Virus record (IMG/VR): IMGVR_UViG_2718218135_000004
Strand: one strand, 5' to 3'
Length of the DNA: 37,570 bases
Source: a virus
Lineage: Duplodnaviria; Heunggongvirae; Uroviricota; Caudoviricetes
Below are positions 1,382 to 37,570 of this stretch, piece by piece. Numbering within the stretch: position 1 is the stretch's first letter; every line of letters begins with the position of its first letter. Made by a program: the position numbers and the translations under genes. The notes under the pieces were generated by a model, which was not told the origin of the DNA, did no database searches, and saw only the letters and a program-made list of their open reading frames with translations.

Positions 1382-3067
1382 GTGAATATAAACGTCGCCG
1401 AATTGTTAAATGGGAATTACATTCTGTTATTATTTGTGGTCCTCGCGCTTGGGCTATGTCTCGGAAAGTTACGACTTGGTTCGATCCAACTGGGTAATTC
1501 CATTGGCGTTTTAGTCGTATCGCTGTTATTAGGCCAACAACATTTCAGCATTAACACCGATGCGCTTAATCTTGGCTTTATGCTGTTTATTTTCTGCGTC
1601 GGGGTCGAAGCCGGACCGAACTTTTTTTCCATTTTTTTTCGCGATGGGAAAAATTACCTAATGTTAGCACTGGTGATGGTTGGCAGTGCGCTGGTGATCG
1701 CCTTAGGGTTAGGTAAGCTGTTTGGCTGGGATATTGGCCTGACGGCCGGTATGTTAGCAGGCTCTATGACGTCGACACCGGTTCTGGTCGGTGCTGGCGA
1801 TACACTGCGTCATTCCGGCATGGAAAGCAGGCAGCTCTCACTGGCACTGGATAATCTGAGCCTCGGGTATGCCTTAACCTATTTAATCGGTCTGGTGAGT
1901 TTGATTGTTGGTGCGCGTTACTTGCCGAAATTGCAGCATCAGGACTTACAGACCAGCGCCCAGCAAATCGCCCGCGAACGTGGCCTGGACACTGATGCCA
2001 ACCGTAAGGTTTATTTACCGGTGATCCGCGCCTATCGCGTCGGCCCGGAGCTGGTGGCCTGGACCGACGGCAAAAATCTGCGTGAACTGGGTATTTATCG
2101 ACAAACCGGCTGCTACATTGAACGTATTCGACGTAACGGGATTCTGGCAAATCCAGACGGTGATGCCGTGCTACAAATGGGCGATGAAATAGCGTTGGTA
2201 GGCTATCCCGACGCCCATGCCCGACTCGATCCCAGCTTCCGTAACGGTAAAGAAGTTTTCGATCGTGACCTTCTCGACATGCGTATCGTCACTGAAGAAG
2301 TGGTCGTTAAAAACCATAACGCTGTAGGTAAACGTCTCGCACAACTGAAGTTGACCGATCACGGTTGCTTCCTTAACCGCGTCATTCGTAGCCAGATTGA
2401 GATGCCGATAGATGACAACGTCGTGCTTAACAAAGGTGACGTTTTACAAGTCAGCGGTGATGCCCGTCGCGTAAAAACCATCGCCGATCGCATCGGCTTT
2501 ATCTCGATTCACAGCCAGGTCACTGACCTGCTGGCATTTTGCGCCTTCTTTGTTATTGGGCTGATGATCGGGATGATCACCTTCCAGTTCAGCACATTCA
2601 GTTTCGGCATGGGGAACGCTGCCGGGTTGTTATTCGCCGGAATTATGCTGGGCTTTATGCGTGCTAACCACCCGACCTTCGGTTACATTCCGCAAGGTGC
2701 ATTAAGCATGGTGAAAGAGTTCGGCTTGATGGTGTTTATGGCAGGCGTTGGTCTGAGCGCCGGTAGCGGTATTAATAACGGCCTGGGCGCGATTGGCGGT
2801 CAGATGTTGATTGCCGGATTAATTGTCAGTCTTGTGCCCGTGGTTATCTGTTTCTTGTTCGGTGCTTATGTATTGCGAATGAACCGCGCACTGTTGTTCG
2901 GCGCAATGATGGGCGCACGCACCTGCGCGCCGGCAATGGAGATCATCAGTGATACAGCTCGCAGTAACATCCCTGCGCTGGGCTATGCGGGCACCTACGC
3001 AATCGCCAACGTCCTGCTGACGCTGGCAGGGACAATCATCGTCATGGTATGGCCAGGATTAGGATAA
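1382..3067 (+). CDS. ybjL: putative AAE-family transporter YbjL (561 aa)
   Basis: 561-aa ORF from GTG 1382; N- and C-terminal TM blocks flanking a soluble central region; T7/T8 homopolymers at 1621-1645 read through in frame. Confidence 0.85.
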
Positions 3068-3179
3068 AACTGAAGTTGCCCTGAAAATGAAATTTTTTTG
3101 CACAACCGCAGAACTTTTCCGCAGGGCATCAGTCTTAATTAGTGCCACTGCTTTTCTTTGATGTCCCCATTTTGTGGAG

Positions 3180-3222
3180 CCCATCAACCCCGCCATTTCG
3201 GTTCAAGGTTGATGGGTTTTTT
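3180..3222 (+). terminator. rho-independent terminator-like hairpin in ybjL/prophage junction
   Basis: CCCATCAACC (3180-3189) ... GGTTGATGGG (3207-3216) followed by TTTTTT (3217-3222). Confidence 0.6.
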
Positions 3223-3302
3223 GTTGCCTGAAATTTATGCCTTTTAAAATCATGATGTTAGAAGCACTGTTTTTTAACGATGGCGACAAATTGGCGGCAG
3301 CG

Positions 3303-3611: not shown

Positions 3612-4712
3612 TCATTCCATTTCGAAATCATCAATCTTCACTTCAAGCTCCAGACTGGTCGTAAAACCGTTATCCGGGCTGACGGTATGTGTCAGAGTCG
3701 TAATGGTCCATTCCGCATCATCTATCGGCTGTTTAAAACCACTGACCTTCACAGGCATTTCCGTGTAGAGATCTGCCCGCCCTTCCGCCAGTTGTAGCGA
3801 GAATGACGCAACGCCGCGTTGCAGGCGTTCCCACTGCATTTTTGCCGCTCGTTCGGCGTTGCTCCGGTTGGCATAAGTGCGATTAAGTACCAGCACGTTT
3901 TCATCCGTCCCCACCAGGTAATCGCCCTGCTTCGCTTCCGGCTCTTTCTTCTGCTTCTTAGTCCTGTGCTTACGCTTCACCGTAGTGCTTTCTTTCTTCG
4001 CGGGTTCGCGGGTATGCAACCAGCTGGCAATTACCCCCGTGTAGGCTCCGCGATCTGCCAGGGTAAAGCGGTGACTGTCGCCGTCCTTGCGTGTGATAGT
4101 GATCACCGGCAGTGGTTTACCAGTGGCGCTTTTGCCCTGTCCCTGCCGGATGAATAACAGATTGCCATTTTTCACCGACGCGATGGCACCGTACTGGCGT
4201 GCCAGCCGCATCAGAAAACTGCCGTCACTCTCATTAGTCTGGTCTATATGCTCCACGGGCTTATCCGACAGGTCTTTACCCAGTGCCATCTTCAGCTTGT
4301 GACGCGCGGCTATTTCCTTCACCACTTCCCCGACAGTGGTCTTGTGCCACGATTTTTCACGGCGGGTATTCAGCGTTTCCCTAAAATCAGCACTTCGCGC
4401 CCGGATAGTCAGGTGATCCGGTGCGCCAGTGTGTTCAATCTCGTCCACCGTGAATGCCCCTTTCGGGAAAAGCGGCTGCCCCTTCCAGCCCAGCGCCAGC
4501 GTAATGACCGCACCACGGCGCGGCAGCACGATTTTTCCGTCGGCGTCGTCCAGCTCCAGATCAAGCTGGTCCGCTTCAAAGCCCCGGTTATCCGTCAGCG
4601 TAAGCCCCATCAGGCGGTTGTCCAGCACAGTGGTGATATCCTTGCCTTCAATACTGATGCTGAATGCTGGAGTTTTGTTGCCTTTGTTAAGCAGTTCAGA
4701 GCTGAAATTCAC
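3612..4712 (-). CDS. D: tail protein gpD-like
   Basis: 366-aa ORF at the gpD position (between ogr and U); recalled similarity to P2 gpD. Confidence 0.85.
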   Translation of the reverse strand: MNFSSELLNKGNKTPAFSISIEGKDITTVLDNRLMGLTLTDNRGFEADQLDLELDDADGKIVLPRRGAVITLALGWKGQPLFPKGAFTVDEIEHTGAPDHLTIRARSADFRETLNTRREKSWHKTTVGEVVKEIAARHKLKMALGKDLSDKPVEHIDQTNESDGSFLMRLARQYGAIASVKNGNLLFIRQGQGKSATGKPLPVITITRKDGDSHRFTLADRGAYTGVIASWLHTREPAKKESTTVKRKHRTKKQKKEPEAKQGDYLVGTDENVLVLNRTYANRSNAERAAKMQWERLQRGVASFSLQLAEGRADLYTEMPVKVSGFKQPIDDAEWTITTLTHTVSPDNGFTTSLELEVKIDDFEME

Positions 4713-16709: not shown

Positions 16710-17913
16710 ATGTATAAAATTCAAAGCGTCACAATTAATGGCTTTTGGCAGCGATTAAACTGTTCCTGCTCATTTAATGATGATGTAAATATTATTATAG
16801 GCCGAAATGGCACGGGTAAAACAACCTTTATGAACCTTCTGCACTCAATATTATCCCTTGATTTGGACAGTATTAACAATGCTGATTTCAATAGTGCCGA
16901 AATAAAACTTAAAGATAAAAAAAAGACAAAAACAATCAAAGTCAAAAAACTTGAAAGCGAATTCGTTATTTAACACTGATGATAGAAGAATATCTCTTAG
17001 TTATAGACGTAGAGTGCATGATGAAACAGAAGAACTAAGAACAGAACTAGCAAAACTAGTCTCGCTTTCTTCTTTATCTGTTTACAGATTAAGAAATAGT
17101 GATGATTTTGAAGTTAAAGATAAATATGGCTCTCGTTTTATCAACCCTGTTGACTATAAGTTATCAGAATTAATACAGGAACTTACAAAATATCAACTTG
17201 AACTATCCCAGAAAGCCAGAGATATCGCATTAGAACTGCAAAAAGAGGTTCTGGCATCAATACTTTATAGCAAGGAAGATATGGAGAATCCTGCTTACAA
17301 CATTAACTTTAACAAAGAGGAAGAAAAACAAAACCTCCTTAATGCATACACACAGTTAAATGCTATTGATCAAAACATTCGTAAAAAAATCAGCTTTCAT
17401 GTTGAAACAATTAATAATACCATTTCGGAATTAAAGAATAAAAGTGAAAGTGGCTTTGATATTCGTTCGATCGAAGCATTGAGAAAAACACAAAAAATAA
17501 TCAAAATGTCATTAACTTCAAAAGAGAAAACATCAAAAATATTTTCTCCAATAGAACAATTCTTAAGCATACTAAGAAATTTTATCACCGATAAAGAATT
17601 TCATTTTCAATCGGGATTGTTAGTCATAAATAACACCTATGGGCCAATAGTTTTAGAAAGTTTATCTTCTGGTGAAAAACAACTGCTAATTTTATTCATT
17701 GAGACCCTCTTGCAAAGAGGGCAACAATATATTTTCCTAACTGATGAGCCTGAGCTTTCCTTACATATTCAATGGCAAAGAAATATTATCCCTGCCATAA
17801 AAAAATTAAATCCTAATGCACAAATTATTGCTGCAACCCATTCTCCTGAAGTTGCATCTAAATATAAAAACGCCATTTTCAATATGGAGAGATTAGTCAA
17901 TGCTAATCAATGA
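16710..17913 (+). pseudogene. ABC-type ATPase (AAA_15/21-like, AriA/OLD-ATPase-like), split by a +1 frameshift at an A8 tract (16917-16924)
   Basis: Walker A GRNGTGKTT in the 87-aa N-terminal ORF; SSGEKQ, Walker B YIFLTDEPELSLH and ATHSPE in the 320-aa C-terminal ORF; the two ORFs overlap 16951-16973 in different frames. Confidence 0.7.
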
Positions 17914-18756
17914 TTCTAATGCAGAAAACTTTTCTTGGTCTAATGAAGCGGAAAATGTGATCAGTTTATTTTATGATGCTGATATTATGGTCTATGTTGA
18001 AGGTGAAGATGACATTGCTTTTTGGGAAATAATTTTTAAAAAAATGGTCGTTTTAATGTAGAAGTTCAAGATGTTGGTGGATGTGAAGCTTTACAACCAT
18101 ATATCGAAAAAATAACCTCAGGAGAAATAAACGCTATAGTTGCCAGAGATTCGGATCTAAACCATTTTTCTGACAACATAGTAAAGCATACAAATATTAT
18201 TTACACAAAGGGATATTCAATAGAAAACACAATCATTGATGAAAAAATCATATCACACATACTCAAAAACACAGGCCGTTTTTGCACGAAAAAAATGCAG
18301 GAAATAGATGTGGAAAATTGGCTTTCTAATTTCTATAGCAACATTGAGAACTTAATAATACTAGATATTCACAATCATTTAAATAAATTAGGATGCTCCG
18401 TAATTGGTGATTCCTGTGATCGTTTTATGCAATCAAGAAATTCATACAATATATGCAAGGAAAAAATAGATGAATATATCAATAGACTACCTGAATCGTT
18501 TACTACTAATGGTTTAGCAGAAAAAAACAACATTCAATTCCCAGAAAATACATCTATAAATCATTGGGTGAAAGGGCACTTTCTTTTCTCAGCATCATTA
18601 AGATTTATAACAAACTTTTTGGCATCCATCAATAAAAAAACCTCTATATCCAAGGATAGTTTTTACGCAAACATCTTGTCTGCATTTGAGATTTTTTATA
18701 CAGAAGAACATGCTGATTATAGTTATTACAATCAAAAGATAGGGGCCATCACATAA
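17900..18756 (+). pseudogene. Toprim-like (OLD/DUF4435-type, AriB-like) protein, split by a frameshift at an A7 tract (18038-18044)
   Basis: ATG 17900 overlaps the ATPase stop by 14 nt; frame 2 reads ..VYVEGEDDIAFWEIIFKK then stops at 18059-61; frame 1 is open from 18040 to 18756 (..AIVARDSD..GYSIEN..). Confidence 0.65.
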
Positions 18757-24736: not shown

Positions 24737-26503
24737 ATGAACACCACACTGACACCCGCAGATCTCGATCCCCGTCGGCAGGCCATGCTGCTGTACTTTC
24801 AGGGATACCGCGTCGCCCGCATTGCTGAAATGCTGGGCGAGAAAGTTGCAACTGTTCACAGCTGGAAAAAACGCGACAAGTGGGGTGACTATGGGCCGCT
24901 GGATCAGATGCAGCTCACCACCGCCGCACGCTACTGCCAGCTCATTATGAAGGAGCACAAAGAAGGGAAAGATTTCAAAGAGATTGACCTGCTGGCGCGC
25001 CAGTCGGAGCGCCACGCGCGGATCGGCAAGTTTAACAATGGCGGCAACGAAGCCGACTTAAACCCTAACGTCGCCAACCGCAACAAAGGCCCACGCCGTC
25101 AGCCGGAAAAGAATGTTTTCACCGATGAACAGATTGAGAAGCTGGAAGAAATCTTCCATTCCTCCATGTTCAACTACCAGCGCCACTGGTGGGAAGCCGG
25201 AAAAACCAACCGCATCCGCAACCTGCTGAAGTCACGCCAGATCGGCGCAACCTTCTATTTTGCCCGTGAAGCCCTGATTGACGCCCTGCTGACCGGACGT
25301 AACCAGATTTTCCTTTCCGCCAGCAAGGCACAGGCCCACGTCTTTAAGCAGTACATCTTCGACTTCGCCAAAGAAGTGGAGGTGGAGCTGAAAGGTGATC
25401 CGATGGTGCTTCCTAACGGTGCCACTCTTTACTTCCTCGGCACCAATGCCCGCACTGCCCAGAGTTATCACGGCAACCTGTATCTGGATGAATATTTCTG
25501 GATACCGAAATTTCAGGAGCTGCGTAAAGTGGCTTCCGGTATGGCTATTCACAAAAAATGGCGACAAACCTATTTTTCCACGCCATCAAGCCTGACCCAC
25601 AGTGCTTATCCGTTCTGGTCCGGTGCGCTGTTCAACCGTGGACGCAACAAAGCCGACAAGGTGGACATCGACCTGTCCCACAGCAATCTGGCCCCCGGCC
25701 TGCTGTGCGCAGACGGGCAATACCGCCAGATAGTCACCGTGGAAGATGCGGTGCGCGGCGGCTGCAACCTGTTCGACCTTGACCAGTTGCGCATGGAGTA
25801 CAGCCCGGACGAATACCAGAACCTGCTGATGTGCGAGTTTGTGGACGATCTCGCGTCCGTGTTTCCGCTCAGCGAGCTGCAGGCGTGCATGGTGGACAGT
25901 TGGGAAGTCTGGACCGACTTTCATGCACTGGCCCTTCGCCCGTTTGGGTGGCGCGAAGTGTGGATCGGTTATGACCCGGCAAAAGGTACGCAGAACGGCG
26001 ACAGCGCCGGATGCGTGGTGGTGGCACCGCCAGCCGTGCCGGGCGGTAAGTTCCGTATTCTTGAGCGCCACCAGTGGCGCGGGATGGACTTCCGCGCCCA
26101 GGCGGACGCCATCAAAAAACTGACCGAACAGTACAACGTGACATATATCGGCATCGACTCGACGGGTGTCGGTCACGGGGTTTACGAGAACGTGAAAGCG
26201 TTTTTTCCTGCCGTCCGGGAGTTTGTCTACAACCCCAACGTTAAAAATGCCCTGGTACTCAAGGCATACGACATTATCAGCCACCGCCGTCTGGAGTTTG
26301 ACGCCGGGCACACCGACATTGCGCAGTCATTCATGGCAATCCGTCGCGCCACCACCGCCAGTGGCAACCGCCCGACCTATGAAGCCAGCCGCAGCGAAGA
26401 AGCCAGCCACGCCGATCTGGCCTGGGCAACGATGCACGCACTGTTTAATGAACCGCTGCAGGGCGAGTCCGCCAATACAAGCAATATTGTGGAGATTTTT
26501 TGA
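24737..26503 (+). CDS. P: terminase large (ATPase) subunit gpP-like
   Basis: 588-aa ORF divergent from O. Confidence 0.9.
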   Translation: MNTTLTPADLDPRRQAMLLYFQGYRVARIAEMLGEKVATVHSWKKRDKWGDYGPLDQMQLTTAARYCQLIMKEHKEGKDFKEIDLLARQSERHARIGKFNNGGNEADLNPNVANRNKGPRRQPEKNVFTDEQIEKLEEIFHSSMFNYQRHWWEAGKTNRIRNLLKSRQIGATFYFAREALIDALLTGRNQIFLSASKAQAHVFKQYIFDFAKEVEVELKGDPMVLPNGATLYFLGTNARTAQSYHGNLYLDEYFWIPKFQELRKVASGMAIHKKWRQTYFSTPSSLTHSAYPFWSGALFNRGRNKADKVDIDLSHSNLAPGLLCADGQYRQIVTVEDAVRGGCNLFDLDQLRMEYSPDEYQNLLMCEFVDDLASVFPLSELQACMVDSWEVWTDFHALALRPFGWREVWIGYDPAKGTQNGDSAGCVVVAPPAVPGGKFRILERHQWRGMDFRAQADAIKKLTEQYNVTYIGIDSTGVGHGVYENVKAFFPAVREFVYNPNVKNALVLKAYDIISHRRLEFDAGHTDIAQSFMAIRRATTASGNRPTYEASRSEEASHADLAWATMHALFNEPLQGESANTSNIVEIF

Positions 26504-27549
26504 TGGGAAAGAGTAAGAAAAACCGCGCTGCGGCGATGAATCACATCCAGCATAAAAGCCAGACTTCAGCCGAAGCATTCAGCTTCGGCGATCCCGTTCC
26601 TGTTCTGGACCGCCGAGAATTACTGGACTATGTGGAATGCGTACAGATGGACCGTTGGTATGAGCCGCCCGTCAGCTTTGACGGACTGGCGCGCACCTTC
26701 CGCGCCGCCGTGCATCACAGTTCCCCGATTGCAGTAAAGTGCAACATTCTGACCAGTACCTATATCCCTCATCCGCTGCTCAGCCAGCAGGCTTTTTCGC
26801 GTTTTGTGCAGGACTATCTGGTATTTGGTAACGCCTACCTGGAGAAACGCACGAACCGCTTCGGTGAAGTTATCGCCCTTGAACCGACCCTGGCAAAATA
26901 CACCCGACGCGGATTAGACCTGGATACCTACTGGTTTGTGCAATACGGCATGACTACGCAGCCGTATCAGTTCACGAAAGGCAGCATTTTTCATCTGATG
27001 GAACCGGACATCAACCAGGAGATCTACGGCCTGCCCGGTTATCTTTCTGCCATTCCGTCAGCCCTGCTCAACGAGTCCGCCACGCTGTTCCGCCGCAAGT
27101 ATTACATTAACGGCAGTCATGCAGGCTTCATCATGTACATGACCGATGCAGCGCAGAACCAGGAGGATGTGAACAACCTCCGCAATGCGATGAAAAGCGC
27201 CAAAGGTCCTGGTAACTTCCGTAACCTGTTTATGTACTCGCCTAACGGTAAAAAGGACGGGCTTCAGATTATCCCGTTGTCAGAAGTGGCGGCGAAGGAT
27301 GAGTTCCTGAATATCAAGAACGTGAGCCGGGACGACATGATGGCGGCGCATCGTGTGCCGCCACAAATGATGGGGATAATGCCTAATAATGTCGGGGGGT
27401 TTGGGGATGTAGAAAAGGCAAGCCGTGTCTTTGTCCGCAACGAGTTGATACCTCTGCAGAAACGCCTACAGGAACTTAACAACTGGCTGGGCGATGAAGT
27501 TATACGTTTCGAGCCGTACACTTTAGATATTCAGAATGAAAAGAAATAA
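26500..27549 (+). CDS. Q: portal protein gpQ-like
   Basis: 349-aa ORF, ATGA overlap with P stop. Confidence 0.88.
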   Translation: MMGKSKKNRAAAMNHIQHKSQTSAEAFSFGDPVPVLDRRELLDYVECVQMDRWYEPPVSFDGLARTFRAAVHHSSPIAVKCNILTSTYIPHPLLSQQAFSRFVQDYLVFGNAYLEKRTNRFGEVIALEPTLAKYTRRGLDLDTYWFVQYGMTTQPYQFTKGSIFHLMEPDINQEIYGLPGYLSAIPSALLNESATLFRRKYYINGSHAGFIMYMTDAAQNQEDVNNLRNAMKSAKGPGNFRNLFMYSPNGKKDGLQIIPLSEVAAKDEFLNIKNVSRDDMMAAHRVPPQMMGIMPNNVGGFGDVEKASRVFVRNELIPLQKRLQELNNWLGDEVIRFEPYTLDIQNEKK

Positions 27550-27577
27550 AAGTTAGCGAATAAAAATCATTAGCATA

Positions 27578-27596
27578 GGCCGCAAACTGAGCGGCC
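27578..27596. terminator. hairpin between convergent Q and hotspot operon
   Basis: GGCCGC-AAACTGA-GCGGCC followed by TTATT. Confidence 0.5.
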
Positions 27597-27603
27597 TTAT
27601 TCA

Positions 27604-27873
27604 TTACCAATTTCTTTTTTCGGAGTTTAGCCAATCACCGCATGGATAATATCTTGACGCCCATTCACCTTGTAAACGAGCTACAAACAGAATATCGTTA
27701 CTATCGACCCTGGCTTGGAGTCCGTCACGCAGTTGAGTTGCGGTCAGCGTTGTATCTACTAACCAAAATGATTCAAGATATTTACAGTATGTAAATTGCT
27801 TTAGATAGTCAAAAACTTCATCGTAGTTTCTTCCCGGAGCCTTCAAGTCATAGGTTATACAATAAATAGCCAT
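27604..27873 (-). CDS. hypothetical 89-aa protein (hotspot cargo)
   Basis: ORF with GGAG RBS that overlaps the stop of the upstream Zn-ribbon gene; no family recognised from sequence. Confidence 0.55.
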   Translation of the reverse strand: MAIYCITYDLKAPGRNYDEVFDYLKQFTYCKYLESFWLVDTTLTATQLRDGLQARVDSNDILFVARLQGEWASRYYPCGDWLNSEKRNW

Positions 27874-27876
27874 TCT

Positions 27877-28059
27877 CTAAGCTCCGCATTTTTTATCATT
27901 TGGGGAACATCTTAACCTGCGACATTTGCGGCAATACGATTGAGGGATCAGCCGCTCTCCTTCCATAGTTCTAAAACCAAACACTTCTTCAATTTTGTTC
28001 AAATCACCACTTGCAATAACCCCACAGCAGGGGCAGACAGCCTCAATTTGAAATGCCAT
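27877..28059 (-). CDS. small Zn-ribbon protein (about 60 aa; CPCC...CRKC)
   Basis: Start chosen at ATG 28059 with GGAG RBS; ORF-track TTG start 28122 is less likely; Cys pattern C-x-C-C ... C-x-x-C. Confidence 0.5.
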   Translation of the reverse strand: MAFQIEAVCPCCGVIASGDLNKIEEVFGFRTMEGERLIPQSYCRKCRRLRCSPNDKKCGA

Positions 28060-28699
28060 GTCTATCTCCATTCCACATGTTGAATGTAGGGTAATACTTC
28101 CTTTCAAGCAAAAATGAGACAAGGATCTTGAAACCTAATTTAAACTTGCTTGCGCGCGCTCGTATCCCCGCCACGCCTGCCCGCTTTATGTAGTAGTTTT
28201 CATGCACCTGCATGACATGAGCAAAAGCCCGCCAGTTCTGGCATGTCTTAGCCAAACCGATCCTCAAACGATCATGCGAACTCATGCAGCATAGACATGC
28301 ATGACATGAAAATCGGTCAAACCTTGAAACCAGTCATAAATATGAGCCAGCTTAATACACACTAAATAGCTGCGTCTAATACTGCTACACCTGCCGTTTA
28401 CTGACATGTGGCATGTCGCGTAAGGACAACATACTGTAGGCCAGATACAGCAGGATCAGGCGAAGAAAACGGCCCCACGCCTTACCCAGCAAGGGCCAAG
28501 GGCTAACCGAAAGTGGAGCATTATTCCGCGCAGTTATTTAGTGTCAGCTCTTTTGAGCTAAAATCAAGTTTCAACATGAGGGTCTGTGCAGGCTTTCTCA
28601 TCCCGCTAATTTATACAGCACACCTATATGGCTATGAGTTTGTCATGCCCGCTAATCCTGTTAGGATTAGCCTTGTTTTTTTACGATTGGGATAGGGAT

Positions 28700-29506
28700 A
28701 TGAAGAAATTAACTGGCGTAATTGCTTTTGCTCTGCTGCTTACTGCTTGTGACAAACCGAAGATCGATGCATCAAGCGATCAGTCGATGAAAGAGTCCAT
28801 TCAAAAAGTAAGAGAGTCCTTACCTGCAGATAAAAAAGCTCAGTTTGATGATGCAGTTAAAGTCGTTGCCTTTAGCCAAATCAACATGAGAGAGCTAATG
28901 CAGGCTGGAACGTCTTCTGGGGACGTCTACGAAACAAAAATTAAGTCAGCGTTGGAAGGTAAAACTGGTGATGAGGTTATAAATTACGCACAAACTATTC
29001 GCCTTGAGCGTGAGAAGAGAGAGAAAGAACAGGCTCTGCAAGAAATAAAAGAACTGGAAGCCAAACAAACCTCTGCAACACAGGCTGCGGAAAAAATGAA
29101 AGCCTTCAAGGTCGAACGTTCCCGTTTTTATTTCCAGAAAGAGGATTACGGCAATGATCAGCCAATTCTGGATATTAGCGTTGAAAACGGAACAGACAAA
29201 GCGGTTGCCAGAGTATTCTTCAAAGGAGTTATTGCCAGCCCAGGAAGAAGCGTCCCTTGGTTCTCTGACGTCTTCAACTATAAAATTTCTGGAGGTCTGG
29301 AACCAGGTGAGAAAGCCAACTGGAAATTAGCCCCTAATAGATACTCTGATTGGGGAAAACTTAAAGTTCCGGCTGATGCTATATTTACCGTCACAGTCAT
29401 TGGCCTTGAAGACGCAGATGGGAAATCGATCTATGGTGACGCCGAGTTTTCAGAACGCGATGCTGACAGACTGAATCAACTTAGAGATAAGTACCTTTCT
29501 AAATAA
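28700..29506 (+). CDS. lipoprotein (268 aa) with coiled-coil segment
   Basis: MKKLTGVIAFALLLTAC signal peptide plus lipobox; ORF-track start 28628 is an upstream extension. Confidence 0.7.
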   Translation: MKKLTGVIAFALLLTACDKPKIDASSDQSMKESIQKVRESLPADKKAQFDDAVKVVAFSQINMRELMQAGTSSGDVYETKIKSALEGKTGDEVINYAQTIRLEREKREKEQALQEIKELEAKQTSATQAAEKMKAFKVERSRFYFQKEDYGNDQPILDISVENGTDKAVARVFFKGVIASPGRSVPWFSDVFNYKISGGLEPGEKANWKLAPNRYSDWGKLKVPADAIFTVTVIGLEDADGKSIYGDAEFSERDADRLNQLRDKYLSK

Positions 29507-29614: not shown

Positions 29615-29914
29615 ATGAAACGTATAACTTTCTCCTTTACGTTAGTAGCAATCATCATAGCCTTAGCTGGATGTGCTTTGCCAGATAAAGACGGCGACTT
29701 CGGAGCTTATGTTCATGCCTGTCAGCAATATGCATACGGAAAATCCTATGCCTTTGAGAATAGAGACTTCGCGTATAAGGTCTGTAAGGACGCGGCGAAA
29801 CTGTGGAGTGAAGAAGTTCCTGGCTATATCATCAGGCAAATTCAACTACATCCTGAAATACCCAGCGAAGAAATTAAATATGCAGCCATGGCCGGCTCTT
29901 TGGGTAACAACTAA
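29615..29914 (+). CDS. small lipoprotein (99 aa)
   Basis: MKRITFSFTLVAIIIALAGC signal peptide plus lipobox. Confidence 0.7.
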   Translation: MKRITFSFTLVAIIIALAGCALPDKDGDFGAYVHACQQYAYGKSYAFENRDFAYKVCKDAAKLWSEEVPGYIIRQIQLHPEIPSEEIKYAAMAGSLGNN

Positions 29915-30323: not shown

Positions 30324-32738
30324 TTAATACAGGTTCCGCCACTTATCATCTTCCTGCAAACGCTGGTTCCGATAGAAGATACGCAGGCCTGCTCCTGACG
30401 GAATACTGCCACCGCAAAGGAGCAAATCGACCTCTTTCTCGCTGCCATCAAATCCTCTGGACTTCAGTTCATAGACGAGCTGCTGACGCTGATACTCTGT
30501 AATTCGCTGTTTGTAGTCTTTACGCCGTTTCGGTTTAACCAGGCGCAATCTTGCTGCCAGTTCCCGGCGCTCTTTTTTGCTCATACTGTGCAGGTAATCG
30601 TGCAATTCCTTGTCATCCATGCAGGTAATGTCCGTTCTGGTATCCCCATCTGCTGATTCATCTTTCTCATGTTGGTTCAAATTTTCAGCAAGGGGACAGT
30701 TATTGCCACGAGTCCAAGGGGCGCAAGCGCCCTGGTCGGCTGCCGCCTCCTGAACGTCAACGGCCTTACGAACCATTTTCCACTTCACCGCATGAGTGCA
30801 GATCTTGCCCTCTGCAATGGGTGACCAGATGCCATAAATACGAATGCCGTGATCGCCATAGGCGGTCGGCTCTTCGTTAATTTCATAAGCAGTTCTGATG
30901 AGGTGATATTTGCGGGGAACCAGTACGCCGCCCTGCTTCATGATGTAAGTGGCAAAACAACCAGCATCAGCAGCAGCCAGGATTGCATCAAGGCGCGGGT
31001 TATCCAGTACCGGCGCACCTGCTTTTTTGTCCCCCTGTTGCCTTGCCGCCTGACCAGCCAGCAATCGCAGTTCACGGTAAGCCTGACGCCCCGGAATGCC
31101 AAAGAAGCGGAATTGCTGAACACGATGCAAAGACGCCCAGGCATTCACGTATTCAGCGTTATCACGCAGAGATTTACCCGTTTCCTTGCTGATCTCGCCA
31201 GCCAGACCACGCCCGTCAATGTTCTTGCTGATATATTTCGCGATGTAGCTTGTCGGCGTTCCTTTGCGCGGGTTAATCAACTCAGACTTAAATCGTGGTC
31301 CCGTGTTATTCCCCAGCTCCTCGCGGTCTTCACGAATGGCAAACTTACGCAATAAAGCAGTAATGGCGCGGCGATCTTTTTTGCGCATAAAACACAACAG
31401 GTGCCAGTGAACTGTACCGTCATGATGCGGCTCAGCCACCCGCACGCCATACCAGCGCAATCCGGCTTTGTGCATCGCCTTACGAAATGCAGCAAACATG
31501 CCGACCAGATAATCACTGCTTTGTCTTACCGTCGCATTTGTCCAGGTCGGGTTGGGCCTGCCGTTATTTAGCGTGGAATGGAAACGTGACGGACAGGTGA
31601 TGGTGTAGAAAACGGCGCAGTCACCGCGCATTTCCGCGATAAGCTCCAGGCCTTTAACACAGGCCATCATCTCATTGCGGCGATGCGCAGGGTTGCTGCT
31701 GCTGGCGTTTACCACATCCTCCATGTCCAGCGTGTCGCCGTCTTCGTTCACCAGTTCATGAGAACGAAAAAACTCCAGCGACTTACGGCGCTGCTCACGT
31801 TTATGCATCACGGCTTCATAGCTGACATAAGGAGATGCTTTTTTGCTAACCAGGCAGACAGCGCGCAACTGCTCTTCCCGCCATTCGCAACGCATCTTCC
31901 ATAATTTCCGATACCACCAGTCGGCGCACAACATACGCGCCAGCGAACCCGGAATGAGTTCATAGGGCACGGGTTTACGGCGGTTTCTTTTCCGGCGGAG
32001 TTGCTCAAACGCAGGAGGAATGACATCCAGACGCAGGGTTTCCGCCGCCACCCTTTCCCATGTCTTGCGGATTTCTTCTGGCTTAACGTCATCGGTGGCA
32101 TACAAATCGCCACAAGCTGCATCAAGACACATGCTCATATGCGCAGCAACAAGGGTGGACAGGCGTTTCACCTGATCCTGACTCATTTCAGGCAGGATCA
32201 GCAGGCCGTCCAGCCCTTCATGGCTTGCCATAAAGCGAAAAGAAGTGGATAGCTGACAGTCGCGTACATGCTCCAGTCGTTCCAGACATGGCTTAATCGT
32301 CTCACGCAAATAGCGGGAATAAGCCTTTGGCCTGCCCAGGCTGCTGAAGTATTCGATACGTTGCATCAGCGGTTTGCTGATATGGGAAGGCTGGGCATTG
32401 ACGTCCGCCAGAATGACCATATCTGGATTAAAACGCTGCTGCTCATGCGCCAGCTTTGCCCGGCTAATGAGCTTATCCTGCTCCATTTCGCGTTGGACAG
32501 GATCACGGGATTCATTAAAGAAATAACGCTCCCAGACCTGATCACTTAGTGCCTCGCGACGCAGTTGTTCCTGCTCATTATCGACAGCGTACAGAGTGAT
32601 CAGGTTTGAAAGCGCAGAAACCGGCGCAACTTCCGCCAGGTCCAGATAAGGGTTAATGGCCTTTTTCGGGCTGTTCCATGAGAATGCTGCGGCGACCTCG
32701 TTAAAGCCGCTGCAGTTGTTCATATCATCATGGCTCAT
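30324..32738 (-). CDS. A: replication initiation protein gpA-like (rolling-circle nickase)
   Basis: 804-aa ORF at the gpA position. Confidence 0.85.
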
Positions 32739-36329: not shown

Positions 36330-36517
36330 CTTTTGCTTTTATATCTGCGTCTAAAATAAAAATGAGCCGCAGGTTAACCGCAAAAGTTACATGCTCACAT
36401 AGCAAAAAGAATAGCCAACTTCATTATGGCTTCAGTGAGATGTATGGTCGTAGGATTTCATACATTGACACTGGTTATACATACAGTAAAAATGCTCTCT
36501 ACTGGAGGGCATTTTTT

Positions 36518-37570
36518 ATGGCAGTACGAAAACTCACCACAGGGAAATGGCTTTGCGAATGTTACCCCGCCGGACGAAGTGGGCGTCGTGTGCGTAAACA
36601 ATTCGCCACCAAAGGCGAAGCTCTGGCTTTTGAGCGTCACACGATGGAAGAAACCGAATCAAAGCCCTGGCTGGGCGAATCAGTGGATCGTCGAACCCTG
36701 AAAGACGTGGTTGAGCTATGGTTCAAACTACATGGTAAATCTCTGACTGCTGGACAGCATGTCTATGACAAATTGCTGCTGATGGTTGACGCCCTAGGCA
36801 ATCCTCTTGCAACCGATCTCACCTCTAAAATGTTTGCCCACTATCGAGATAAACGCCTGACAGGCGAGATCTACTTCAGCGAGAAATGGAAGAAAGGAGC
36901 AAGCCCGGTCACCATTAACCTGGAGCAAAGCTATCTAAGTAGTGTTTTTAGCGAACTATCCCGTCTGGGCGAATGGTCGTATCCGAACCCACTGGAGAAC
37001 ATGCGAAAATTCACCATCGCAGAAAAAGAGATGGCATGGCTTACCCATGAGCAGATTGTTGAATTACTGGCTGATTGCAAACGTCAGGACCCAATTCTGG
37101 CTCTGGTAGTCAAGATATGCTTAAGCACAGGCGCACGCTGGCGAGAAGCCGTAAATCTTACCCGCTCACAGGTGACCAAATACCGAATTACCTTTGTAAG
37201 AACGAAGGGGAAGAAAAACAGAAGCATCCCTATCAGTAAAGAGCTTTACGAAGAGATCATGGCGCTTGATGGGTTCAATTTCTTCACAGACTGCTATTTT
37301 CAATTTTTATCCGTGATGGAAAAAACGTCTATCGTGCTCCCTCGCGGTCAACTGACACACGTTCTGCGCCATACTTTTGCGGCGCACTTCATGATGTCGG
37401 GTGGAAACATCCTGGCCTTACAAAAAATTCTCGGACACCACGATATAAAAATGACTATGCGTTACGCACATCTGGCACCGGATCATCTGGAAACGGCGCT
37501 CCGTTTCAATCCTCTGGCAACATTGCCAAGTGGCGACAAAGTGGCGGCAGCGGTTGGCATTACCCCGTAA
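36518..37570 (+). CDS. int: tyrosine integrase (P2/186 family)
   Basis: Catalytic R (ARWREA), HxxR (LRHTFAAH) and Y (RYAHL) motifs; start at MAVRKLTTG (36518); stop codon is the last triplet of the window. Confidence 0.9.
   Translation: MAVRKLTTGKWLCECYPAGRSGRRVRKQFATKGEALAFERHTMEETESKPWLGESVDRRTLKDVVELWFKLHGKSLTAGQHVYDKLLLMVDALGNPLATDLTSKMFAHYRDKRLTGEIYFSEKWKKGASPVTINLEQSYLSSVFSELSRLGEWSYPNPLENMRKFTIAEKEMAWLTHEQIVELLADCKRQDPILALVVKICLSTGARWREAVNLTRSQVTKYRITFVRTKGKKNRSIPISKELYEEIMALDGFNFFTDCYFQFLSVMEKTSIVLPRGQLTHVLRHTFAAHFMMSGGNILALQKILGHHDIKMTMRYAHLAPDHLETALRFNPLATLPSGDKVAAAVGITP

Follow-up and report, generated by a model that had tools for sequence, protein, structure and literature searches.

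Two small genes between cos and the portal gene

We analyzed a 37,570-nucleotide (nt) stretch of viral DNA, IMG/VR virus record IMGVR_UViG_2718218135_000004 (Caudoviricetes), which is referred to at its full length as the window. It contains a P2-family prophage of the 186/Fels-2-like type. Our subject is a pair of small genes located in the interval that separates the cos site from the 3′ end of portal; the pair is transcribed toward the late Q-P operon. The upstream gene encodes a 60-amino-acid (aa) zinc-ribbon protein, and the downstream gene encodes an 89-aa protein that resembles Cas2 in its predicted fold. The elements of the pair are as follows.

28059–27877, minus strand: zinc-ribbon gene, 60 aa, phrog_19700; start ATG at 28059, stop TAG at 27879–27877
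28068–28065, minus strand: GGAG Shine–Dalgarno (SD) element of the zinc-ribbon gene, 6 nt before the ATG at 28059; conserved in relatives
27873–27604, minus strand: putative stand-alone Cas2-superfamily gene, 89 aa, phrog_1090; start ATG at 27873
27885–27882, minus strand: GGAG SD element of the Cas2-like gene, within the last zinc-ribbon codons

An earlier reading of the sequence alone (the sequence-only reading) had described two open reading frames (ORFs) of about 60 and 89 codons, 3 nt apart, with the ribosome-binding site of the second overlapping the stop of the first. Its coordinates are exact. The gap between the TAG and the ATG at 27873 is AGA (27876–27874), and the second GGAG does lie inside the upstream ORF. 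Longer in-frame starts of the zinc-ribbon gene, at 28071 and 28122, are without a ribosome-binding site. Pairwise ratios of nonsynonymous to synonymous divergence (dN/dS) are 0.03–0.09 for the zinc-ribbon ORF, including copies that lack the Cas2-like gene, and 0.10–0.21 for the 89-aa ORF in well-diverged pairs, indicative of purifying selection on both. Each product matches a phage protein family of unknown function (phrog_19700, E 6e-42, and phrog_1090, E 4e-30, respectively). Neither shows homology to a phage structural or housekeeping function, the kind of match that the sequence-only reading had named as counting against it. The two genes are real and form an operon-like unit on one strand.

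The 3-nt-gap layout recurs in diverged P2-like prophages of Kluyvera and Citrobacter and on one metagenomic contig. The two ORFs abut or overlap in a Klebsiella phage as the result of a 1-nt deletion, and in a second Escherichia coli allele both genes are still adjacent. Only 16 of 5,426 complete E. coli genomes contain the zinc-ribbon region. Seven of these carry the pair at ≥99% identity, and nine carry an allele ∼80% identical, in which the Cas2-like gene is also present in the one copy inspected. In the 16 carriers, NCBI PGAP annotates the 89-aa gene and never the zinc-ribbon ORF.

Resemblance of the 89-aa protein to Cas2

Searched alone, the 89-aa protein gave no usable match in Pfam, NCBIfam or the PDB sequences. 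Among the defense models of PADLOC-DB v2, it matched only Cas2b (E 5e-4) and Cas2 (E 3e-3), weakly and over nearly its full length; the zinc-ribbon protein matched none. An AF2 model based on 11 homologues is confident (pLDDT 90, pTM 0.79). The predicted order of elements is β1-α1-β2-β3-α2-β4 plus a short C-terminal helix that contains Trp, which corresponds to a ferredoxin-like fold of ∼90 aa. In a fold search, the best structural matches of this model were Cas2 proteins, and a search of the viral folds in BFVD gave no match at E ≤ 1e-3.

An exhaustive search with the family profile retrieved 4,196 representatives (clustered at 50% identity) at E ≤ 1e-3 and 1,269 at E ≤ 1e-10. Their length is 85–95 aa in almost every case. 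PF09827 (CRISPR_Cas2) was matched at E ≤ 0.01 by 30 of 66 diverse members. When 10 relatives were checked individually, three passed the PF09827 gathering score of 23.8 (27.4, 27.2 and 24.6 bits), with the whole model covered. The three that passed are linked to the window protein at E 1e-18 to 1e-22. In a profile-to-PDB alignment (4es1, 7mi4), the YDL of the family falls on the YDV/YDI of Cas2, S-x-W on SVF, and D..ND on D..KD. The Tyr-Asp ends strand 1, Ser-x-Trp lies in strand 2/3, and Asp-x-Asn-Asp precedes strand 4. Y8, D9, L10, Y17, D60 and W81 are conserved in ≥90% of the 66 diverse members, and conserved aromatic residues of the family include Y8, Y17, W37, W71 and W81. D9 does not vary among close relatives. 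Like its Cas2 counterpart, it closes strand β1 at the C-terminal side and is a candidate metal-binding Asp. An orthologue in one Klebsiella phage record is labelled ‘CRISPR-associated endoribonuclease Cas2’, and homologues are labelled Cas2 in several Staphylococcus phage records.

These data suggest that the 89-aa protein belongs to the Cas2/VapD superfamily, as a divergent member that stands alone. The sequence-only reading had left both proteins without a family and had proposed fold and profile comparisons. These comparisons place the 89-aa protein, whereas the model of the zinc-ribbon protein is too poor for a fold comparison (pLDDT 62).

Two unusual relatives were also seen. P0158, a metagenomic protein of 1507 aa with Baseplate_J and CBM_5_12 domains, matches the Cas2-like family profile at residues 367–433 (E 6e-18). 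The match reflects either a genuine fusion with a phage baseplate or tail protein or an artefact of assembly or gene calling. P0031 (184 aa) has tandem Cas2-like domains and passed ChrB_N at 30.7 bits, against a Pfam cut-off of 23, hinting at a wider kinship of the Cas2-like family with ChrB-type N-terminal domains.

Distribution and neighborhoods of the Cas2-like family

For context, we fetched 58 loci with the 11-sequence alignment and scanned 150 neighboring proteins from 55 genomes with Pfam. The hosts of the 58 loci belong to the Proteobacteria, Firmicutes, Actinobacteria, Bacteroidota, Planctomycetota, Chloroflexi and Acidobacteria, and include a candidate phyla radiation (CPR) bacterium and a haloarchaeon. 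The gene is carried by prophages, by elements resembling integrative and conjugative elements (ICEs), and by regions resembling defense islands. A tblastn search with the zinc ribbon in all loci found no copy near homologues of ≤65% identity. Such homologues lie instead beside Thoeris and Tae4 (in a marine bacterium), in ICE-like elements, or beside restriction–modification genes.

All-against-all clustering of the neighbors revealed no recurrent partner, the largest cluster being CI/LexA-type repressors from 6 loci. The neighbor families listed (top 25 of 86) include helix–turn–helix (HTH) regulators, S24 peptidases, Rha/ORF6C, methylases, insertion sequence transposases, AAA_15/21, KAP and SAVED; Cas1 is not among them. 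No CRISPR array or spaced repeats were found in the window. In Enterococcus phage phiFL1A and Staphylococcus phage SN8, the gene is monocistronic and runs in the same direction as those for integrase, ImmA and CI, opposite to the early genes around it. It is likewise solo in Pasteurella Pmp11, with a similar placement. We also compared, as a possible hidden partner, the convergent small ORFs that lie beside the Cas2-like gene in different phages, and these proved mutually unrelated.

Thus the Cas2-like gene is without a CRISPR link and without an obligate partner, and its family is very large, carried by mobile genetic elements (MGEs), and uncharacterized. That mobile elements carry solo Cas2 homologues had been pointed out in 2012 (PMC3506569).

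The zinc-ribbon gene and its independent distribution

The cysteines of the 60-aa protein are arranged as C9-P-C11-C12 ... C43-R-x-C46, with C51 and C58 in addition. Four of them (C9, C12, C43 and C46) are common to a distant homologue from a Shiga toxin (Stx) phage and define a CPxC-x30-CRxC zinc ribbon, as the sequence-only reading had anticipated from the cysteine pattern. The motifs GDLNKIE, FGFR and PQSYCRxCR are invariant. Against Pfam, the protein had no match even at E ≤ 10, and NCBIfam and the PDB sequences likewise yielded nothing of use for it. Two candidate identities were considered and rejected. The Ogr/Delta zinc finger has cysteines spaced C-x2-C-x22-C-x4-C; the spacing CPxC-x30-CRxC differs from this, and PF04606 was not matched. 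For the Lar restriction-alleviation protein, the sole match (E 0.09) was to the Stx-phage homologue and not to the window protein.

In P2-like prophages of Salmonella, the zinc-ribbon gene occupies the same slot between cos and portal, and the Cas2-like gene is gone. These loci keep the last 10 Cas2-like codons (DWLNVDYRTW-stop), collinear with DWLNSEKRNW-stop of the window. The remnant fits a deletion of ∼240 bp between the TGGCTA hexamers at 27872–27867 and 27633–27628. The zinc-ribbon gene of these prophages is intact, with a dS of 0.68 and a dN of 0.021 relative to the window. The remnant therefore indicates that the pair is ancestral in this lineage and that the Cas2-like gene was lost while the zinc-ribbon gene was retained.

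The zinc-ribbon gene also occurs outside P2-like prophages. In a P4-like satellite of Pectobacterium odoriferum (MTAR01000003.1, 3418–4183), it lies just downstream of a cos-like sequence, GGCGGGGAGAGGGTACGCG; this satellite also encodes an alpha-type primase, AlpA, Ogr_Delta and an integrase. Another island, near smpB, has the gene beside GAPS4 genes and an integrase. It is found as well in a region resembling a defense island, with Mrr/nSTAND3 and KAP genes, and in a further locus upstream of a methyltransferase operon. No Cas2-like gene or remnant is present in the satellite, GAPS4, Mrr/nSTAND3–KAP or methyltransferase loci. In P2-like phages and in a P4-like satellite, the zinc-ribbon gene stands near cos independently of the Cas2-like gene, and a small cos-adjacent gene common to helper-type phages and satellites may merit its own study. 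In the Stx-phage homologue, the zinc-ribbon domain forms the C-terminus of a 197-aa protein with an N-terminal DnaD_N/winged-helix domain, and this fusion suggests a nucleic-acid-related role for it.

The sequence-only reading had gone on to name the pair as a candidate toxin–antitoxin (TA) or defense module. A dedicated TA or two-gene module is not supported: homologues of the 89-aa protein in the 55 genomes and in Gram-positive phages have neither a zinc-ribbon neighbor nor another recurrent one, and the zinc ribbon is under purifying selection in elements without the 89-aa gene.

Prophage context and the cos-proximal hotspot

The surrounding features of the prophage, in order along the window, are these.

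24737–26503: gpP-type large terminase
26500–27549: portal gene
27577–27597, no strand assigned: G+C-rich hairpin AGGCCGC-N7-GCGGCCT between the convergent Cas2-like and portal genes, a terminator-like site
28060–28158, minus strand: leader from cos to the zinc-ribbon start, highly conserved in P2-like relatives
28177–28159, minus strand: cos cohesive-end sequence GGCGTGGCGGGGATACGAG, P2-family motif match, upstream boundary of the gene pair
28628–29506: lipoprotein gene with DUF6694
29615–29914: second lipoprotein gene
30324–32738, minus strand: gpA-like replication endonuclease
36362–37570: integrase, at the opposite prophage end from gpD

The prophage also encodes a Dam-type methylase, a CP76/CII-like regulator and a CI-type repressor. 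GGCGTGGCGGGGATACGAG is a unique match in the window, where 0 are expected by chance. Compared with the cohesive ends given in PMC3931495, it is identical by count at 14 of 19 positions to the P2 end and at 18 of 19 to the Smp131 end, and it is embedded within a block that is invariant among related phages. The hairpin at 27577–27597 is kept in relatives from Klebsiella, Kluyvera and Salmonella and is probably a bidirectional terminator.

The cos-proximal interval between gpA and gpQ is a defense hotspot of P2-like phages (PMC9122126, Rousset et al. 2022; PMC13586616). The gene pair sits inside this interval, on the portal side of cos, so the hotspot location named by the sequence-only reading is borne out, and a status as accessory cargo of the hotspot is supported. 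Variable cargo on the gpA side consists, in the window, of the two lipoprotein genes. Klebsiella phages (MK433577, 4939–7593) and some Salmonella prophages have there a GAPS4-type system of three genes, encoding PDDEXK_GAPS4, GAPS4b_N and a 227-aa protein, and in a further Salmonella relative the place is taken by GmrSD, a HEPN protein and a C5 methylase.

Several further observations concern the DNA beside cos and the rest of the prophage. A 20-nt direct repeat, CATGCACCTGCATGACATGA, occurs at 28201–28220 and, as a copy 85% identical and 89 nt apart, at 28290–28309. A 40-nt imperfect inverted repeat (28359–28398/28505–28544, 78% complementary) lies between cos and the DUF6694 lipoprotein gene. 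These repeats are possible terminase-binding sites or insertion scars. An 80-aa ORF at 28043–28285 (minus strand) spans cos, and a 49-aa version of it is annotated as a coding sequence in Klebsiella phage MK433577. We rejected it as a gene: its conservation is that of the cos DNA, of which its peptide KRAGVAGIRARAS is a translation, and it is probably not a gene.

In the tail-gene region (a Z/fun-type hotspot), we saw a PARIS-like pair on the plus strand, at 16951–17913 and 18295–18756, with a 380-bp gap. The former encodes a 320-aa AAA_21/AAA_15 ATPase whose alignment to the profiles does not begin until positions 60 and 156; the latter encodes a 153-aa DUF4435 fragment, equivalent to profile positions 116–236 of 238. 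Both genes look truncated or fragmented. At the gpD end of the prophage, the RybB small RNA gene (3147–3225, plus strand, 105 bits) lies directly past a ybjL-like permease gene (1382–3067) and ahead of the first prophage gene, gpD (3612–4712). With RybB at this end and the integrase at the other, the prophage appears to have integrated next to rybB.

Interpretation and alternatives

We favor, with a probability of about 0.55, the view that the 89-aa protein is a partner-independent, Cas2-like small nuclease or nucleic-acid binder that serves in phage–host or phage–phage conflict and is encoded behind a resident zinc-ribbon gene. The protein would act alone, probably as a homodimer by analogy with Cas2. 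It is likely to be a small metal-dependent nuclease, or a factor that binds nucleic acids, expressed from the prophage. Its probable use is exclusion or counter-defense rather than CRISPR adaptation. In P2-like phages, the gene would borrow the transcription and translation signals of the zinc-ribbon gene, whose product is probably a nucleic-acid-binding or regulatory protein and not an antitoxin.

Several points weigh against this view. The superfamily link of the window protein rests on its fold and on transitive sequence evidence, and PF09827 does not match it at E ≤ 1. Nuclease activity is suggested only by the retained Cas2-like residues. Moreover, Cas2 catalysis is dispensable for CRISPR adaptation (PMC6452270), and therefore the conserved Asp may reflect structure or metal binding, not cleavage. 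The 3-nt coupling is strictly kept across saturated synonymous divergence, so a functional link between the two genes is possible within the P2-like lineage. As to expression from the prophage, scanning the leader from cos to the zinc-ribbon start gave no convincing sigma-70 promoter, and manual inspection of it found only weak or mis-spaced hexamers; the nearest minus-strand candidate (28547–28520) lies past cos. Finally, literature searches turned up no functional study of the family and, for phage or solo Cas2 proteins, only hypotheses and the work on BPSL1038.

The layout of the pair is an argument for a type II TA or abortive-infection system, in which a VapD/Cas2-like RNase toxin would be coupled to an upstream zinc-ribbon antitoxin and autoregulator. 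The order is the classic antitoxin-first one, with a 3-nt gap and the SD element inside the upstream ORF, and it is kept in P2-like relatives despite saturated dS. The homology between Cas2 and the VapD toxin (PMC3506569, PMC6452270) and the position in a defense hotspot also fit, and Salmonella, in which the putative toxin is gone and the putative antitoxin is still present, shows the direction of loss that TA logic permits. Yet dozens of homologues of the putative toxin (26–65% identity) have no zinc ribbon, conserved neighbor or convergent partner, and the copies in Gram-positive phages are monocistronic. Conversely, the zinc ribbon is under strong purifying selection in elements without a Cas2-like gene or remnant, such as the P4-like satellite and the GAPS4 island, and neither protein matches a TA model in PADLOC or NCBIfam. 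Because the two genes are distributed independently, the TA explanation is weakened, and we consider it unlikely. Another explanation is that the protein is non-catalytic, a ferredoxin- or ACT-like binder or sponge of a ligand (e.g. a nucleotide signal) or a regulator of the switch between lysis and lysogeny, with a likeness to Cas2 that is ancestral only. This would suit the several conserved aromatics (Y8, Y17, W37, W71, W81) and the position of the gene beside CI, Cro and antirepressor genes in Gram-positive phages and, in several genomes, close to S24/HTH and Rha/ORF6C regulators; one tandem-domain relative also matches ChrB_N, the ChrB N-terminal domain. The sequence links lead, however, to Cas2 (PF09827) and not to ACT families, the Tyr-Asp of the Cas2 active site is ≥90% conserved, and the best structural matches are Cas2 proteins. 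We regard this possibility as rather improbable.

Least probable in our judgment is anti-CRISPR mimicry, in which a phage Cas2 homologue would serve as a dominant-negative decoy that binds host Cas1/Cas2 and blocks spacer acquisition. The same idea has been proposed for a Cas2 homologue encoded by viruses of Bathyarchaeia (10.1101/2023.08.24.554615). In its favor, the family studied here is phage- and MGE-borne and retains the Cas2 fold. Against it, the family forms a single coherent lineage, marked by a conserved, Trp-rich C-terminal extension, and its hosts have very different CRISPR types or none. No mini-array or cas gene lies nearby, in the window or among the neighbor families listed, and Gram-positive phages carry the gene in the lysogeny orientation, not in an early lytic operon.

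A bolder form of the partner-independent reading is tentative: the family may be a huge class of single-gene Cas2-fold effectors, a new minimal immune or counter-immune factor of temperate phages and MGEs, which in P2-like phages lies behind a cos-proximal zinc-ribbon regulator common to helpers and P4-like satellites. Such an effector might, for example, be a nuclease that excludes superinfecting phages, or might destroy or sequester a nucleic-acid signal of host immunity.

Significance and comparison with known systems

Cas2 is universal in CRISPR adaptation, yet debate continues over what its nuclease site does and from what it evolved. Descent from VapD-like MGE toxins is the leading idea (PMC3506569, PMC6452270). 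About 4,000 clusters of prophage proteins that appear to share the Cas2 fold and keep the Tyr-Asp site, standing alone without Cas1, array or antitoxin, offer a handle on a Cas2-type role outside CRISPR, and the copy in an E. coli P2-like prophage is a readily testable representative in a tractable phage. The pair should not be catalogued as a TA system. Its zinc-ribbon member is a strongly conserved, 60-aa cos-adjacent gene that automatic annotation systematically overlooks.

The 89-aa protein shares with Cas2 (PF09827) the predicted ferredoxin-like β-α-β-β-α-β fold and the Asp at the end of β1. It differs in being below Pfam detection and in having a further segment at the C-terminus, conserved and rich in Trp, that includes a short helix. 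The gene is solo on prophages and MGEs and has no cas1, array or cas neighborhood, as judged from the window and from the families listed for the neighbors of 55 loci. With VapD of the VapD/VapX system it would share the superfamily (PMC3506569, PMC6452270), and it resembles vapD in being a small MGE-borne gene with, in the window, a small coupled gene upstream. The difference is that no adjacent antitoxin is conserved across the Cas2-like family and that the zinc-ribbon gene is distributed independently. As for type II TA pairs in general, the two genes are small, co-directional and tightly spaced, as such pairs are. Across homologues, however, the two families do not co-occur as such pairs do: the Cas2-like gene is solo outside enterobacterial P2-like elements, and the zinc-ribbon gene is found alone elsewhere.

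BPSL1038 of Burkholderia pseudomallei (PDB 7VXR) is a solo Cas2-like DNase with a D11(X20)SST motif (PMC10491678). Its identity to the 89-aa protein is 9%, and the family profile did not retrieve it in the PDB sequence search. The motif is absent from the window protein, in which the 20 residues after D9 lead to C30-K31-Y32, and the family consensus has no SST there. BPSL1038 has been reported from seven genera, compared with the many phyla of the Cas2-like family.

Like known cargo of the P2 gpA–gpQ (old/tin) hotspot (PMC9122126), the pair lies between gpA and gpQ by cos and is variable, with loss of the Cas2-like gene in Salmonella relatives and presence in only 16 of 5,426 complete E. coli genomes. 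It sits on the portal side of cos, in contrast to the lipoprotein, GAPS4 or GmrSD cargo on the gpA side. It seems best to group the 89-aa protein with the stand-alone Cas2-fold proteins of mobile elements, of which solo homologues have been noted before.

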